Of a stretch of DNA of 59,435 bases, positions 2,301 through 57,256 are shown in pieces. The stretch is from an uncultured Gammaproteobacteria bacterium (GTDB lineage Bacteria; Patescibacteriota; Patescibacteriia; DYHP01), in contig CAZGDX010000002.1 of the NCBI GenBank assembly GCA_964525225.1, positions 1-59,435 of the forward strand, written 5' to 3'. The notes below the pieces were generated by a model. That model ran no database searches, was not told the origin of the DNA, and was given only the letters and a program-made list of their open reading frames with translations. Position numbers and translations under genes: made by a program. The stretch's first letter is position 1. Each line of letters opens with the position of its first letter.

Positions 2301-2615
2301 TTATGATTCTTCTAAAATTATTTTTTCTTTAAACGCGCCTCGTTCTTCAGCTTTCTTCATTTGCGCCGTATTTATATCTTCTTTACTGAAATTTTTATAA
2401 TCGCATATCGCGCCAAGCACTTCTTGAATATCCGCCATCTCTTCAATTGTTTCGCTTTCAAAAAATTCTTTTGATTCTTCCAATAATTTTTCTTTTAATT
2501 TTTCCCAATATTCTTTTTCATCGGCAATATGAACAACCGGCATTCCGCCTTTGCTTTTTATGTATTCCGGAATTTTATCTCTGACCAATTTATCGTATTT
2601 CATAATTATCCCCAT
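2301..2615 (-). CDS. MazG-like nucleoside triphosphate pyrophosphohydrolase (small all-alpha type)
   Basis: 104 aa. [11 protein letters not shown]...KLLEESKEF...[10 protein letters not shown]...KKAEERGAF pattern. Alternative ATG at 2603. Confidence 0.55.
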
Positions 2616-3674
2616 CTATTTCCTTCTATACAATTTTACCACGCCAACCGCCAGAATAACCATTATAATTGCAAGTATCAAAAACGCCACGGCTTTTTCT
2701 TTTGTCTGTAAAAAAACGCTGGCTCCGCCGAACAATCCGGCAAGAAGATAAAATGTGAGGACTGCTTGGCGATGAGAAAATCCAATATCCAATAATCTAA
2801 AATGAAGATGTTTGCGGTCGCCAAAAGCAAAAGATTTCTTTTCCCAAAAAACCCGCCGTAAGATTATCCAAGCCGTGTCAAAAACCGGAACGCCCAAAAC
2901 CAAAAGCGTGGTGGCAACTTTACTTCCGGAAATTATCGCAAGCGTCGCCAAAATAAATCCCAAAAAAACACTCCCGCCCTCGCCCAAAAAAATTTTAGCC
3001 GGATGAAAATTCCACGGCAAAAATCCGCAAATTGCGCCGGCAAAAATTATTGCAATAAGCGCCGTATCAAACTGCCGGACAAACGGAAGCAGACAGATAA
3101 AAAATATCACAAGCGTTCCGATTGCGGTGATGCCGGAGACCAATCCGTCCAGCCCATCCAAAATTTTCGTAGTGTACATTATCCCCAAAAGCCAGAAAAA
3201 AGTAATAATTCCGCCGGGAAAAAATATCTCCCGCCCGAAAATTATCGCAGAGAAAACATCAAAATTGATAATTCCGCCAAAAGGATTGCGGATATGGTGA
3301 ATACTCACTCCGCAAAAAATCACAATAAGCGAAGCAACTATTGGAAAAATTATCTGGTACCGCGCTTTTAAATTGTATTTATCGTCTAAAAATCCGCCAA
3401 TCATCAAAACCAATCCCCCTGCAAAAATACCGATTATATGGATTGGATGTATAAAATCACCAAAAAGACCTCCAACCCGCCAAAAATAAGCAATTACAAC
3501 GAAAAAAGCTATAAAAATAGCCGCTCCTCCCAAAAGCGGAACGGCCTTGCTGTGCGCTTTCCGCTCGCCGGGATAATCCAAAATTTTCAATTTCAAAGCC
3601 AAAAACTTCACTGCCGGCACAAGACAGATTGAAGCCGCAAAACTTGCGATAAAAGCTGTAAAAAAATTATACAC
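2616..3674 (-). CDS. Glycosyltransferase family 4, WecA/TagO-like undecaprenyl-phosphate sugar-1-phosphate transferase
   Basis: 352 aa polytopic membrane protein. ERKAHSKAVPLLGG, FLDDKYNL, ILDGLDGL and FLGEGGSVFLGF motifs. GTG start. Confidence 0.8.
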   Translation of the reverse strand: MYNFFTAFIASFAASICLVPAVKFLALKLKILDYPGERKAHSKAVPLLGGAAIFIAFFVVIAYFWRVGGLFGDFIHPIHIIGIFAGGLVLMIGGFLDDKYNLKARYQIIFPIVASLIVIFCGVSIHHIRNPFGGIINFDVFSAIIFGREIFFPGGIITFFWLLGIMYTTKILDGLDGLVSGITAIGTLVIFFICLLPFVRQFDTALIAIIFAGAICGFLPWNFHPAKIFLGEGGSVFLGFILATLAIISGSKVATTLLVLGVPVFDTAWIILRRVFWEKKSFAFGDRKHLHFRLLDIGFSHRQAVLTFYLLAGLFGGASVFLQTKEKAVAFLILAIIMVILAVGVVKLYRRK

Positions 3675-11643: not shown

Positions 11644-11715
11644 AGCCGACAGTGGGGATTGAACCCACGACCTACGGTTTACAAAACCGTTGCTCTGCCA
11701 CTGAGCTACGTCGGC
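11644..11715 (-). tRNA. trnT: tRNA-Thr (anticodon TGT)
   Basis: GCCGACG TA GCTC...GAGC A ACGGT TTTGTAA ACCGT AGGTC GTGGG TTCAATC CCCAC TGTCGGC T. CCA not encoded. Confidence 0.9.
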
Positions 11716-11733
11716 AGTTGATTAGAGATAGAG

Positions 11734-11815
11734 TGGGCAGGCTAGGATTTGAACCTAGGAAGGCGTGAGCCAGCAGATTACAGTCTGCCCCCGTTGGCCG
11801 CTTGGGTACCTGCCC
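11734..11815 (-). tRNA. trnY: tRNA-Tyr (anticodon GTA), long variable arm
   Basis: GGGCAGG TA CCCAAGCGGCCAACGGGG GCAGA CTGTAAT CTGC... long variable arm, CTAGG TTCAAAT CCTAG CCTGCCC A. Confidence 0.88.
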
Positions 11816-12011
11816 CCATACCAATTTTGTGTTTGGTTACAAAATTGTACAATTTTAGACGAAACTTGAACAAATCCACCACACCGACATTAAATAAGAT
11901 TATTGGTATGGGGGTCTGCCCGTTATTTAGCCCGCCTTATCGGTAGGCAAATCTGAAAATTATTATAACCGAATATTACCATAAATGCAAGATTTTATCA
12001 ACCTCAATATC

Positions 12012-12040
12012 AAAAACCGCCCAAAAAGGGCGGTTTTTTA
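12012..12040 (-). terminator. Symmetric intrinsic terminator just after tRNA-Thr(GGT)
   Basis: aaaaa-ccgccc-aaaaa-gggcgg-tttttt. Confidence 0.7.
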
Positions 12041-12050
12041 ATTTTCACAA

Positions 12051-12122
12051 AGCCGTTGGCCAGGATTGAACTGGCGACCTACTCCTTACCATGGAGTTGC
12101 TCTGCCACTGAGCTACAACGGC
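12051..12122 (-). tRNA. trnT: tRNA-Thr (anticodon GGT)
   Basis: GCCGTTG TA GCTC...GAGC A ACTCC ATGGTAA GGAGT AGGTC GCCAG TTCAATC CTGGC CAACGGC T. Confidence 0.9.
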
Positions 12123-51536: not shown

Positions 51537-53330
51537 TTATGGTATTAAAATATCCTTGCAAAATTCCGTTGACGACACCCCGTTACAGCAATACGGCTGT
51601 CCGTCTTCGCAAACGCCTCCGACAGCGCCGGGATAATAACAATTTTGATATAAATCTTTTACATTTGAACCCACTACCGGGGCATAATCAAACCTTATTT
51701 CTTCGGTGCTTGCCGCCAATGGAGCGTGCCGAATTTCCGCGCGGGTATTTACCGAACTTATATCACCTTCTGCCGGCTCTCCCGCTTCATCCAAATTCAC
51801 GCTTCTTATGACATAAGAATATTCATAAACCTGGCTGCAAAATAAACCGATATTGGAATTGTTTAATGTTGTCGCGCTCATCAATTTGCTGAAAGTAGCT
51901 TCAATCGGAACATCCAGCGCCACTTCTCCTTCTTCTATGTTCGGCGTAAATCGCGTAATTATCGGCGGGGTCAGGTCAATTGTGTTGTTTGTCTTAAAAG
52001 TCCAGGAATAATTATCATCCGGTTGACCTTCGGCTACGTTGTTCTTGTTTCCATCCAAAGAATTTGCCGACATATCAACCACGCCGTCGTATGGAAAACC
52101 GGCAGCTGTCGGCGGAGTTGAGCCAACCGTTGCCGCGCGCACGCGGACGGAGATATCTGAATTTCCCGGCAAGCAATAAACTTCGCCTCCGCAGGAATTC
52201 ATCCCGCACAAATCATTGGTCTGAAATTCCACAGTTTTATATCCGTTTCCTATGCTGAATTTTCCGGAGACAATATTTTCTCCGGCGCGAATTTCAATAT
52301 TGCGGAAACCGGAAATGCTACCGTCATCTCTGACTTCAACCGAACCGGACGAGGAAGTCGGGTCAACCGCTTCGTTAAAATTTATCTGAACCGTAATGTT
52401 TCTGGGTTCCGTATTCCCTGCCCGCGGAATTACGGATAAAATTTGCGGCGGGGTCGCGTCCAAAAATGTTCCGATTTCAAATTCCCAGCGATATCCGTCG
52501 CGGAATGAGCCCTCAAAAGCCGCGCCTCCGGATTCTTTTTGTATGTCTGCTCCGATTATCACGGTATATTTAGTATTTTCCGTCGGACTTCCCAAAACAT
52601 CCTGCGGGTCAAAAAGAAAAGTTCGGTGGTCTTCGGTAAGCCGCCCGAAAATATTTGTCATAAATATCTCATCGTCCAATTGGTCGCTCCGACCAATTTG
52701 AATATTCTCCGCGTTTATCAAGTCCTCCGCGTCGCCAAAAATTCCGTTTCCGTTCGTGTCCGCGATAATATCCGCCGGCGCGATAGCTTCTTTGAAGGTT
52801 ATAGTTATCATTGTATTTCGCGGAATATCAACGGCGTTTCTTTCCGGATAATGGTCTTGTACTATTCCGCTTCCAAGCGAGCCAGAAAAAGGATCAAACG
52901 GAGTATCTCCAGTTCCCGCGCCTCCGCCCAAACCGAACAAACGGCCGGTAAGCATATACAAAACAAACTGGGCTATGCCAAAAGAAGCCAAAATAATCGC
53001 CAGACCGATTATGGCATTTCTGATAATTTTTTGCGCTGTTTCAACTTTTTTCGGGTCGCCGGCCGCAGTCATCCAAAGATAACCGGCATAAATTATCAAT
53101 GCGACCAAAATAATACCGAGCAATCCCAAAACGATATTTATGATTCTTCCGATTGTCTGTATTAAATCCTGTTGCGGAAGCCCGGATGTTTCTCCGAGAC
53201 GCCCCAAACCAACATTATCCACCTGCGCGTAAACGATTCCGGCAAACAAAAAAACCGCCAATAAAACGCACACTGCGAATACAGCGGTTTTTAAGTTTAA
53301 AAACTTAATTTTTTTTATACCGTGAAGCAT
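51537..53330 (-). CDS. Surface protein with the same pilin-like N-terminal module plus SbsA/Big-like Ig domains
   Basis: 597 aa. N-terminus ...IVLGLLGIILVALIIYAGYLWMTAAGDPKKVETAQKIIRNAIIG... is paralogous to the giant protein. Repeated P..I....P......V......I...F.E.... Ig-like units. Confidence 0.75.
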   Translation of the reverse strand: MLHGIKKIKFLNLKTAVFAVCVLLAVFLFAGIVYAQVDNVGLGRLGETSGLPQQDLIQTIGRIINIVLGLLGIILVALIIYAGYLWMTAAGDPKKVETAQKIIRNAIIGLAIILASFGIAQFVLYMLTGRLFGLGGGAGTGDTPFDPFSGSLGSGIVQDHYPERNAVDIPRNTMITITFKEAIAPADIIADTNGNGIFGDAEDLINAENIQIGRSDQLDDEIFMTNIFGRLTEDHRTFLFDPQDVLGSPTENTKYTVIIGADIQKESGGAAFEGSFRDGYRWEFEIGTFLDATPPQILSVIPRAGNTEPRNITVQINFNEAVDPTSSSGSVEVRDDGSISGFRNIEIRAGENIVSGKFSIGNGYKTVEFQTNDLCGMNSCGGEVYCLPGNSDISVRVRAATVGSTPPTAAGFPYDGVVDMSANSLDGNKNNVAEGQPDDNYSWTFKTNNTIDLTPPIITRFTPNIEEGEVALDVPIEATFSKLMSATTLNNSNIGLFCSQVYEYSYVIRSVNLDEAGEPAEGDISSVNTRAEIRHAPLAASTEEIRFDYAPVVGSNVKDLYQNCYYPGAVGGVCEDGQPYCCNGVSSTEFCKDILIP

Positions 53331-56127: not shown

Positions 56128-56775
56128 TTACAACTCCAACCCGGCATAAACCGGTTTTTCAACAGACCCAACCCGTTCAAGAGGCCATCCGCGAAGCCAG
56201 ACCCTTCCGATTATCAGGTCTTTTTTAAGCGGTCCGAAAGTTCTTGAATCCAAACTCGCATTTCTATTATCCCCAAGCACGAAATATTCATCCGCGTTCA
56301 ATGTTATTTTAGTTTCGCCGAAAGTGAGGATTCCGTCATCCATGTAATTTGTTTCGTCAACATAAATTCCTTTTGGATTTTCACTGTTAAAAACCGTAAT
56401 TTTTCCATTTCCAATTGAGATTTCCTCACCCGGCAAGCCAATTACTCTTTTAATAAAATACTGGCGGGTATCAAAAGGGTATTTAAAAACAATCACTTCT
56501 CCCCTTTCCGGTTCACGCAAGCGATAATTCAATTCATCAATTATCAAGTATTCTCCATCATAAAAATTCGGCTCCATTGACGCGCCTTTTACATAAAACG
56601 GCTGGACTAAAAAATATCTTATAGGAATAATTATAGCGAGAGAAATAACAATAATCTCCGCGATTTCCCCGACAAAAACAAGAATATTTTTTAAGATGCT
56701 TGACGGCGGTTGGACTTCATTCGTCCCGGCTTCAAATTTTTGTTCTTCTGTTTTATTTTCTAAATTTGGTTCCAT
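56128..56775 (-). CDS. lepB: Signal peptidase I
   Basis: 215 aa. TM anchor, catalytic GASMEPNF, GEVIVFKYP, VLGDNRNASLDSR. Confidence 0.88.
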   Translation of the reverse strand: MEPNLENKTEEQKFEAGTNEVQPPSSILKNILVFVGEIAEIIVISLAIIIPIRYFLVQPFYVKGASMEPNFYDGEYLIIDELNYRLREPERGEVIVFKYPFDTRQYFIKRVIGLPGEEISIGNGKITVFNSENPKGIYVDETNYMDDGILTFGETKITLNADEYFVLGDNRNASLDSRTFGPLKKDLIIGRVWLRGWPLERVGSVEKPVYAGLEL

Positions 56776-56907
56776 AAATAATAAAATAACACCAATAACA
56801 CACTAATTTTATGCGAATAACACTAATTATTCGTGTGCGCGTATTCGTGTGATTATGCCATTTGTGTACATAATATCACAAATTTTCATTTTAAACAAAT
56901 GCCAATT

Positions 56908-57099
56908 TGGCGGGCGCCAGAGGAGTCAAACCCGTAACCTCCCCGCAGTACTGCGGGGCGCTCTAATTTACCCTCTCACCAATTCCATGGACGGCACAGG
57001 ATTCGAACCTGTGACCTCTGTCGTGTGAGGACAGCGCTCTAACCGGCTGAGCTAGCCGTCCGTTGGAATTGGTGGGAGGGCGAGCTGAGCTAACTGCCC
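56908..57099 (-). other. Composite tRNA-like locus: tRNA-like 5' and 3' segments joined by a 16-bp stalk that carries tRNA-Val
   Basis: 5' segment GGGCAGTTAGCTCAGCTCG (57099-57081). Stalk arms 57080-57065 and 56986-56971 pair 15/16. 3' segment TAAATTAGAGCG-CCCCGCAGTACTGCGGGG-AGGTT-ACGGGTTTGACTCCTCT-GGCGCCC-G-CCA (56970-56908). The outer fold is non-canonical. Confidence 0.45.
56988..57061 (-). tRNA. trnV: tRNA-Val (anticodon CAC)
   Basis: GGACGGC TA GCTC AGCCGGTTA GAGC G CTGTC CTCACAC GACAG AGGTC ACAGG TTCGAAT CCTGT GCCGTCC A. Confidence 0.9.
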
Positions 57100-57256
57100 G
57101 AATATCCAATCAAAAGCCGATTTAGTTTATTATATCACGGTTTTTTCCGATAATCAAGTATTTACCGCGCTACCCCTGCCAGTCGACAAACACTTCCGTT
57201 AAAATTAATGTTCAAAAAACGTATAAACACGCAAAGAAAAAATGTATGTTCAATTA

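Follow-up and report, generated by a model that had tools for sequence, protein, structure and literature searches.

A tRNA-Val(CAC) gene nested in probable debris of earlier tRNA-Val(CAC) genes at a hypervariable locus of uncultured Patescibacteria

Partial and decayed tRNA genes, also called pseudo-tRNA fragments, can lie beside an intact tRNA gene of the same kind, where they are missed by tRNA finders and vary among relatives. In classical integrase scars it is the 3′ end of the tRNA gene that is duplicated, not its 5′ 17 nt, and the pairing of leader with trailer around rRNAs forms the stalks that are processed by RNase III. In archaea and red algae, disrupted tRNAs offer precedents for a non-canonical interruption of the D-loop and for a long helix joining the two sides, like the helices of split tRNA halves (PMC4090602, PMC3728597). 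In the Patescibacteria, or candidate phyla radiation (CPR), the rRNA genes, which are functional, carry short insertions in their loops that are later cut out of the RNA; most lack open reading frames (ORFs), and the occasional ones that encode a GIY-YIG protein are neither group I nor group II introns (PMC11270868). tRNA genes do not come up in that paper, where the word has 0 occurrences. Lastly, the free-standing GIY-YIG homing endonuclease SegB, encoded in a tRNA gene cluster of phage T4, recognises a motif of the tRNA T-arm and drives the preferential inheritance and segmental amplification of tRNA regions (PMC2330249, PMC13096335). Here we analyse a locus (57099..56908, minus strand) on a 59,435-nt stretch of contig CAZGDX010000002.1 from an uncultured groundwater bacterium, hereafter the window, in which a complete tRNA-Val(CAC) gene lies between inverted repeats, themselves enclosed by pieces of another tRNA-like sequence. 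No relevant paper on nested or disrupted tRNA genes in Patescibacteria came up in literature searches. We propose that the locus probably holds one working tRNA-Val(CAC) amid the debris of earlier tRNA-Val(CAC) genes, at what would be a hypervariable hot spot of recombination and insertion.

By direct reading, every element of the locus described below was found at its coordinates on the minus strand:

57099..57081, minus strand: outer (relic) 5′ piece GGGCAGTTAGCTCAGCTCG, corresponding to an acceptor 5′ strand, a D-stem 5′ strand and the start of a D-loop
57080..57064, minus strand: arm5 CCCTCCCACCAATTCCA, first arm of a 17-bp inverted repeat and would-be 5′ strand of a stalk in the precursor RNA
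Between arm5 and the inner tRNA, minus strand: spacer AC
57061..56988, minus strand: inner tRNA-Val(CAC), 74 nt, with A73 and no encoded CCA (ARAGORN, Rfam RF00005)
56987..56971, minus strand: arm3 TGGAATTGGTGAGAGGG, second arm of the inverted repeat
56970..56936, minus strand: relic middle, made up of TAAA, TTAGAGCG, the palindrome CCCCGCAGTACTGCGGGG where an anticodon arm would be, and AGGTT, a variable-loop remnant
Between arm3 and the palindrome, minus strand: segment TAAATTAGAGCG (TAAA and TTAGAGCG), the end of a D-loop and a D-stem 3′ strand
56958..56941, minus strand: perfect 18-nt palindrome CCCCGCAGTACTGCGGGG, which matches both strands
56935..56908, minus strand: relic 3′ end ACGGGTTTGACTCCTCTGGCGCCCGCCA, made up of a decayed T arm ACGGGTTTGACTCCTCT, the acceptor strand GGCGCCC, a G and an encoded CCA

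An earlier note on this DNA had described a canonical tRNA-Val(CAC) placed between arms within tRNA-like pieces, and this nested anatomy was confirmed by direct reading, ARAGORN and Rfam. ARAGORN calls the inner element tRNA-Val(cac), its cloverleaf is the minimum-energy fold, and it matches RF00005 over the full model (1-71) with 68.9 bits (E 6e-13; gathering score 29). It is the sole functional-looking gene of the locus. CCA is encoded neither in this gene nor in the three window tRNAs at 11644-12122. It is encoded at the relic 3′ end (GCCA, 56911..56908) and in the intact tRNA-Val genes of L003, L067, L068 and L069 (L-numbers denote loci or contigs of relatives or metagenomes, and X1 and X3-X10 denote sequencing runs). 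This difference from the CCA-encoding resident genes suggests that the inner tRNA is of a sequence type other than that of the genes it replaced.

The inverted arms are likewise real, but their length and pairing had to be corrected from 16 nt with 15/16 paired to 17 nt with complementarity at 16/17 positions. The single mismatch, C/A, comes from an A at 56976 that is private to the window genome; a G occupies this position in L069, X3-X6 and X8-X10. A search of the window for such arm pairs, with up to 3 mismatches allowed, found two sites only where 0.12 were expected, so the pair is not a product of chance. A construct consisting of arm, tRNA and arm folds as a stalk carrying a cloverleaf (z = -7.5 vs. 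shuffled sequences). The leader-trailer duplex, at -35.3 kcal/mol, is far stronger than that of all 31 other tRNAs in the loci compared (median -10.5), a comparison that led us to reject the stalk as a general trait of tRNAs in these genomes.

The outer pieces were a different matter. ARAGORN called no tRNA in either the 3′ segment or the outer sequence joined up without the insert, even with an intron search and a relaxed threshold, and in a local Rfam scan of the locus with E up to 10 only the inner tRNA was tRNA-like. Neither the joined outer sequence (z -1.08, not a cloverleaf) nor the 3′ segment alone (z -0.56) folds better than shuffled sequences, the latter value telling against the small three-way structure that had been suggested for this segment. 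The oddities reported in the earlier note do hold. The outer acceptor GGGCAGT/GGCGCCC forms 5/7 pairs (four Watson-Crick and one G.T), the 18-nt palindrome is perfect, the anticodon loop has 8 nt, or 4-6 nt with the palindrome fully paired, and never 7 nt, and the T-loop is TTTGACT, not of the TTCRANY type. The T stem, ACGGG/CCTCT, moreover contains a C/C mismatch and C56 is lost. What does not survive is the suggestion that these pieces form a second, non-canonical tRNA-like gene: ARAGORN and the Rfam covariance model score the inner tRNA-Val alone, an outcome named beforehand as contrary to it, and the outer part folds like shuffled sequence and mixes paralogues. In close relatives the outer element is not kept as an intact unit, being deleted, truncated or rearranged.

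Comparison with relatives points to the origin of the outer pieces. The relic 5′ piece agrees at 17/17 positions with the beginning of an intact tRNA-Val(CAC) in L067. The relic middle matches, at 33/34 positions, a relic of L069 (2566..2533) whose own 3′ end is ATTGCCCACCA. For the relic 3′ end, the counterpart is the 3′-terminal part of the intact L069 tRNA-Val(CAC) (2796..2720; 20/21 positions identical), a gene of the type GGGCGCC...GGCGCCCACCA with a GGGCGCC/GGCGCCC acceptor. The two acceptor strands of the relic would thus come from different paralogues, which accounts for their 5/7 pairing. A relic resembling the 3′ end in the window, TTCGAATGGCGCCGCCA, lies further downstream in L063, and the relic TAAATTAGAGC is retained in L062, which has no tRNA at the locus. 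Judged from these matches, the outer 'tRNA' is an apparent chimera of at least three tRNA-Val paralogues.

The outer sequence had also been assigned to a tRNA-Val(UAC) type. However, the TAC in question lies in the palindrome that replaces the anticodon arm and so provides no evidence for a Val(UAC) gene, and every intact resident tRNA found here in the relatives is CAC. The loop of the palindrome is CAATACTG in L069, ACGTCACGT in X3 and an unrelated sequence in X5; in another population, the palindrome is centred on CAC. The data support the disruption of more than one gene of the Val(CAC) type, not of Val(UAC). Two explanations that the earlier note had listed, a disrupted Val gene and a recombination scar, are supported by the comparison with related genomes, in which the nested junctions recur and have decayed differently in each.

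The plain form of the gene is found in more distant genomes. L003 and L010 carry an ordinary tRNA-Val(CAC), with neither stalk nor outer pieces, upstream of lepB and hisS (encoding signal peptidase I and histidyl-tRNA synthetase, respectively), and L067 and L068 (LepB 67% and 65% identical, respectively) have a plain tRNA-Val(CAC) with an encoded CCA before lepB. This suggests that an ordinary tRNA-Val(CAC) before lepB is the ancestral state. There is no tRNA between the LCP-family gene upstream and lepB in L064/L065 and L066.

Among the close relatives, identity in coding DNA is about 80%, with roughly similar distances between all of them. The 5′ junction is found again in L071, where arm5 has one C-to-T change and the D stem of the relic is destroyed by a 1-nt deletion; a contig of X5, from the sample and at the depth of L071, carries the relic together with the inner tRNA and a perfect arm3, and provides a second genome with both arms. 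L074 has also kept the 5′ junction, and its outer 5′ piece, GGACGGC..., is a copy of the start of the inner tRNA itself. The 64-kb JGI contig L069 contains the 3′ three-quarters of the inner tRNA, followed by arm3 and the relic, and has neither arm5 nor the inner 5′ acceptor strand. This truncated copy is fused on its 5′ side to a GGGCAGT-type fragment and is dead, and another, intact tRNA-Val(CAC) lies nearby. The arrangement would fit a deletion in a window-like ancestor between direct repeats TAGCTCAG, which are seen in the window. L061 has kept the tRNA and a diverged arm3 and has lost the relic 3′ segment; L072, from the same sample, has other genes beside the LCP gene. Seven more runs from groundwater, freshwater or sediment hold the 3′ junction, six of them (X3, X4, X6 and X8-X10) with G at 56976. 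Wherever the state of a genome is fully resolved, a single intact tRNA-Val(CAC) is present, the only constant of the locus.

A conversion tract reaching into the flanking genes was rejected: identity to L069, L071, L074, L061 and L063 remains between 70 and 88% as far as the edge of the locus and does not rise in those genes. A RelB-like antitoxin/YafQ toxin pair lies between the tRNA-Val region and lepB in L063 (233-715) and L067 (160-641) and is not found in the window, L061, L062 or L069. Its insertion in two relatives is a further sign of an insertion hot spot. Together with the decayed partial tRNAs beside an intact one, this variability likens the locus to ordinary tRNA gene remnants, from which it differs in three ways: the intact gene sits inside the D-loop of the broken one, it is flanked by a 17-bp inverted repeat, and the broken gene is a chimera of at least three paralogues.

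In L069 (JGI contig Ga0376279_0000207), an array of tRNA-Val pieces (2470-3260, minus strand) lies between the promoter and lepB. Three are 5′ fragments, in each of which the D-loop contains, behind GGTTA, the same 43-53-nt GC-rich hairpin (z -3.0 and -3.7). The T-loop of the L069 relic contains a 40-nt insert of two hairpins (z -4.7), a variant of which is present in L063. An ORF of 87 aa (3160..2897), just before the anticodon of one fragment, encodes a GIY-YIG protein (Pfam PF01541, E 1.5e-15) that consists of the bare catalytic domain, with no DNA-binding domain. The likeness to T4 SegB is one of arrangement: a GIY-YIG gene among tRNA genes, duplicated tRNA segments adjoining the nuclease gene, a tRNA region that is inherited, lost and amplified as a block, and a nuclease gene present in some close relatives and absent from others (PMC2330249, PMC13096335). 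The differences are that the L069 protein is a predicted nuclease reduced to an 87-aa catalytic domain, that it is encoded on a bacterial chromosome and not in a phage, and that the window has none.

Two promoter-like sites flank the locus:

57157..57129, minus strand: sigma-70-type promoter-like site TTGATT-17 nt-TATAAT with an upstream TG, found by consensus scan; putative promoter of the tRNA locus
56898..56870, minus strand: second promoter-like motif TTGTTT-17 nt-TATTAT, preceded by TG, found by direct reading; putative promoter of lepB

The predicted transcript from the first would start about 25-30 nt ahead of the relic 5′ piece. Its -10 region and leader are conserved in L069, L071 and L074, and a similar motif, CGTGATATRAT, stands directly ahead of lepB in L064 and L066, where there is no tRNA. 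The second motif, ATTTGTTTRAAA...GTGATATTAT, is common to L061, L063 and L069; the pair is missing from the consensus-scan list because its -35 element fits at only 3/6 positions. The scan showed no terminator-like site after the locus. Downstream on the same strand are lepB (56775..56128) and then hisS, and the LCP-family gene is divergent upstream. The best matches of the HisRS protein among species-representative genomes are to metagenome-assembled genomes of Patescibacteria, with at most 57% identity.

A history of the locus can be proposed on this basis. Originally, an ordinary tRNA-Val(CAC) gene, transcribed from the conserved promoter, would have stood directly before lepB-hisS. The nested state would go back to a single insertion or ectopic repair event that hit the D-loop of this resident tRNA-Val in an ancestor shared by one small clade of these uncultured bacteria. 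In this founding swap, two G of the D-loop would have given way to about 117 bp, consisting of CG, arm5, AC, a tRNA-Val(CAC) of the other type, arm3 and TAAA. Recombination among near-identical tRNA-Val 5′ parts and 'AGGT' junctions, accompanied by deletions and point decay, may later have produced the present chimera, with its GGGCAGT-type 5′ piece, its palindrome-bearing middle and its GGGCGCC-type 3′ end. Today, the promoter at 57157..57129 would yield a single precursor, with the relic 5′ piece and arm5 as its leader, arm3 and the relic 3′ part as its trailer, and the 17-bp helix pairing the two. RNase P, 3′ processing and CCA addition would then free the tRNA-Val(CAC), the outer pieces presumably being discarded as by-products. 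More tentatively, the array in L069 hints that a selfish endonuclease, through the repair of breaks or gene conversion near it, might be what makes the locus unstable.

Several observations weigh against this account. The stretch of 51 nt formed by arm3, TAAA and the palindromic arm differs at 2 positions only between the window and L069, while the same two genomes are about 80% identical in coding DNA and 66-72% identical in other intergenic DNA. Free decay does not predict such near-identity, which calls for a recent exchange or gene conversion, or else for some constraint. Pairing cannot explain the conservation of arm3 in L069, because arm5 is absent there; the simplest explanation is a recent exchange or gene conversion confined to the tRNA block. 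The substitutions in arm5 (..AATTCTA in L071, with one C-to-T change, and CCCCCATCAATTTTAA in L074, with three C-to-T changes and a 2-nt deletion) are all C-to-T, such that G.U pairing is still possible, a possible hint of selection for pairing. In arm3, a G-to-A change at 56986 in L061 and X6-X8 lies opposite an arm5 C-to-T change of L071 and L074, in different genomes. Nor does the account explain where the inverted repeat came from. As to the endonuclease, its link to the locus is weak: it rests on a single locus, L069, no GIY-YIG gene was found in the window by tblastn, and the homologues in L006 and L008 are free-standing genes that have no pieces of tRNA around them. Lastly, there are no RNA runs among the listed runs that hold sequence of the locus.

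Some of these points would favour a functional stalk. The outer pieces could be debris and the 17-bp stalk a helix selected for the processing or stabilisation of the inner pre-tRNA, the processing scaffold of the earlier note and a reading we consider unlikely, if the best placed of the alternatives. It would account for the strength of the leader-trailer duplex, by far the highest among the 32 tRNAs, for the predicted fold in which the stalk stacks coaxially on the acceptor stem, and for arms that remain near-identical in the window, L071, L069 and several runs at about 80% genome identity. The G.U-compatible changes in arm5 and the alteration of both members of the pair 57065/56986, albeit in different genomes, point the same way. 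However, L069 keeps a perfect arm3 without arm5, beside a dead tRNA copy, and the orthologous tRNA of distant relatives (L003, L010, L067 and L068) has no stalk. Both arms are known in two genomes only, each with one uncompensated change (C/A in the window, T.G in L071 combined with X5), and neither shows a compensatory double change. As in RNase III stalks, a long leader-trailer duplex brackets a stable RNA in a longer transcript; here, however, the helix has 17 bp, encloses a single tRNA and is found in a narrow clade only, relatives' orthologous tRNAs lacking it.

Slightly less probable still is that the arm-tRNA-arm unit is a small mobile cassette that entered the D-loop of a tRNA-Val gene, mobilised in trans by, for example, a homing-type endonuclease. 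Its boundaries are sharp and lie inside what is still recognisable as a tRNA gene, and its ends are inverted repeats of the kind found in miniature inverted-repeat transposable elements (the 17-nt arms, 16/17). The tRNA it would carry is of another sequence type than the resident ones and has no encoded CCA, and such a replacement would make the insertion harmless. Horizontal spread would fit the high similarity between genomes that are about 80% identical, the GIY-YIG gene of L069 lies in the same locus, and T4 SegB provides a precedent for the spread of tRNA regions driven by a GIY-YIG enzyme (PMC2330249, PMC13096335). On the other hand, there is no target-site duplication (the flanks being ..AGCTCG and TAAATT..), no further copy of the arms in the 59-kb window, and the depth over the arms in X1 is flat and that of a single copy. 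Nor did the unit appear in any other genomic context among the loci compared or in scans of larger collections: a JGI metagenome scan for the 5′ junction, GCTCAGCTCG N{14,22} GGNNNNNTAGCTCAG, gave 27 loci, none of them related and most in GC-rich coding DNA, and an IMG/VR scan for the junction of the tRNA 3′ end with arm3 gave 7 chance matches, all within ORFs. The outer 5′ piece of L074, being of the inner-tRNA type, fits local duplication or conversion equally well, and identity in the flanking genes is not raised.

An extension of the cassette, which we regard as rather doubtful, would make the armed cassette, the GC-rich hairpins, the palindrome and the GIY-YIG ORF parts of an undescribed selfish insertion into tRNA loops, the cassette bringing its own substitute tRNA with unchanged specificity, so that splitting the host gene would carry no cost. 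The D-loop hairpin of L069, searched for in IMG/VR, gave 0 matches. By analogy, such insertions would be the tRNA counterpart of the rRNA-gene insertions of these bacteria, with which the locus shares the group of organisms and the interruption of stable-RNA genes at loops (PMC11270868). Unlike the rRNA genes, the interrupted tRNA copies here seem to be dead, and they are always accompanied by an uninterrupted tRNA-Val.

It is very improbable that the outer molecule is a functional tRNA-like RNA, be it split, in two pieces, permuted, a decoy or freed of its insertions after transcription. Its outer segment does encode CCA and has a D stem, GCTC/GAGC; the outermost acceptor, GGGCAAT/ATTGCCC, pairs perfectly in L069 and in L071 combined with L063; and the hairpins in the D-loop and T-loop of the relatives' relic are orderly and do not resemble random damage. 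One might also cite in its favour that the rRNA genes of this group are rich in insertions, placed at the tips of stem-loops (PMC11270868). Against this, no model detects the molecule, its fold is no better than that of shuffled sequences, and in the window its acceptor strands come from different paralogues, with losses of T-stem pairing and of C56. Its anticodon loop, of 8 nt, or of 4-6 nt with the palindrome fully paired, differs between populations, the D stem is hit by a deletion in L071, and L061 and L062 lack most of the molecule.

Specific forms of such an RNA were considered and rejected. An archaeal-type intron with a bulge-helix-bulge (two 3-nt bulges around a 4-bp helix) is not possible, since the strands AGCTCG/TAAATTA could not pair in a central helix (CTCG or TCGC vs. 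ATTA). An insert that is itself a complete tRNA is, to our knowledge, not described for the disrupted tRNAs of archaea or red algae, which also differ from this locus in having a viable tRNA after removal of the insert and in their hosts, here bacterial. As for a bacterial group I intron of tRNA genes, scans with E up to 10 for the locus in the window and up to 1 for L069 gave no match, and the insert, only about 117 nt, of which 74 nt are tRNA, sits in the D-loop and not in the anticodon loop. The split or permuted tRNA-like RNA that had been envisaged is contradicted by the order of the pieces, 5′ before 3′, and by a joined product that is not tRNA-like. ARAGORN found no transfer-messenger RNA; the match to the Y-RNA-like family YrlA (13.7 bits, gathering score 69) is due to the inner tRNA; and the sequence does not fit integron attC-like core sites.

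We give least credence to an assembly chimera formed through a tRNA repeat common to many members of the metagenome: the Logan unitigs of X1 do break in the inner tRNA (overlap 57013-57042), over which the depth is 10-40x that of the flanks since many organisms share the sequence, but the flanks are complementary over 17 nt, the tRNA pieces match each other's context, depth in X5 is equal on both sides (8.5), and an artefact is contradicted by independent Logan contigs of the public run X1, which span both junctions though breaking inside the inner tRNA, and by recurrence in other samples, of the 5′ junction in L071 and L074 and of the 3′ junction in L069, L061 and the seven environmental runs.

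A few further observations were made in the same material. In L064 (2320-2440), and identically in L065, a GC-richer stretch with hairpins GGCGAAGCC...GCCTTCGGC and CTGAGGTATGAGTCCTCAG, in which ARAGORN finds no tRNA, could be a decayed RNA gene or a leader element. On three unrelated contigs, L076 (2286-2420), L095 (2920-3040) and L100 (1420-1540), 5′ tRNA fragments comprising the acceptor strand and D arm lie directly upstream of a complete tRNA, the fragment of L100, GCGGTGTAGCTCAGTTG, being in tandem repeat; small duplications of 5′ fragments at tRNA genes thus occur in other bacteria too. Elsewhere in the window, the leader of ribosomal protein L10 (31225-31470, minus strand; Rfam RF00557, 47.2 bits, gathering score 44) contains about 100 nt of inserted sequence that the family model does not have. 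An 83-nt tRNA at 11733-11815 (minus strand; Rfam 44.6 bits) is called 'tRNA-???' by ARAGORN, with a 2-nt anticodon (gt); its loop, CTGTAAT, makes it probably an ordinary long-arm tRNA-Tyr(GTA), the label being an artefact of the caller. A 597-aa secreted or membrane protein is encoded at 51537-53330 (minus strand), next to a YqeY-like gene and small rpsU-like ORFs; its homologue in L061 hits T4SS_pilin and Big_5.

Globally, the locus is best described as an unusual variant of tRNA gene remnants at an unstable site, with a small chance that it points to insertions targeting tRNA genes in Patescibacteria. For annotation, the lesson is that a 'tRNA within a tRNA' can be read as one working tRNA-Val(CAC) in chimeric debris, with no need for a new class of RNA or an oddity of decoding. 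For the biology of these streamlined, uncultured bacteria, the locus would represent a fast-evolving hot spot, at which genomes about 80% identical differ by a nested tRNA, orphan arms, a toxin-antitoxin pair, a GIY-YIG gene and hairpins. If the cassette or the hairpins were mobile and targeted tRNA genes, the invasion of stable-RNA genes in this radiation would extend from rRNA to tRNA, and the cassette would be a natural gene-splitting insertion that brings its own spare part.

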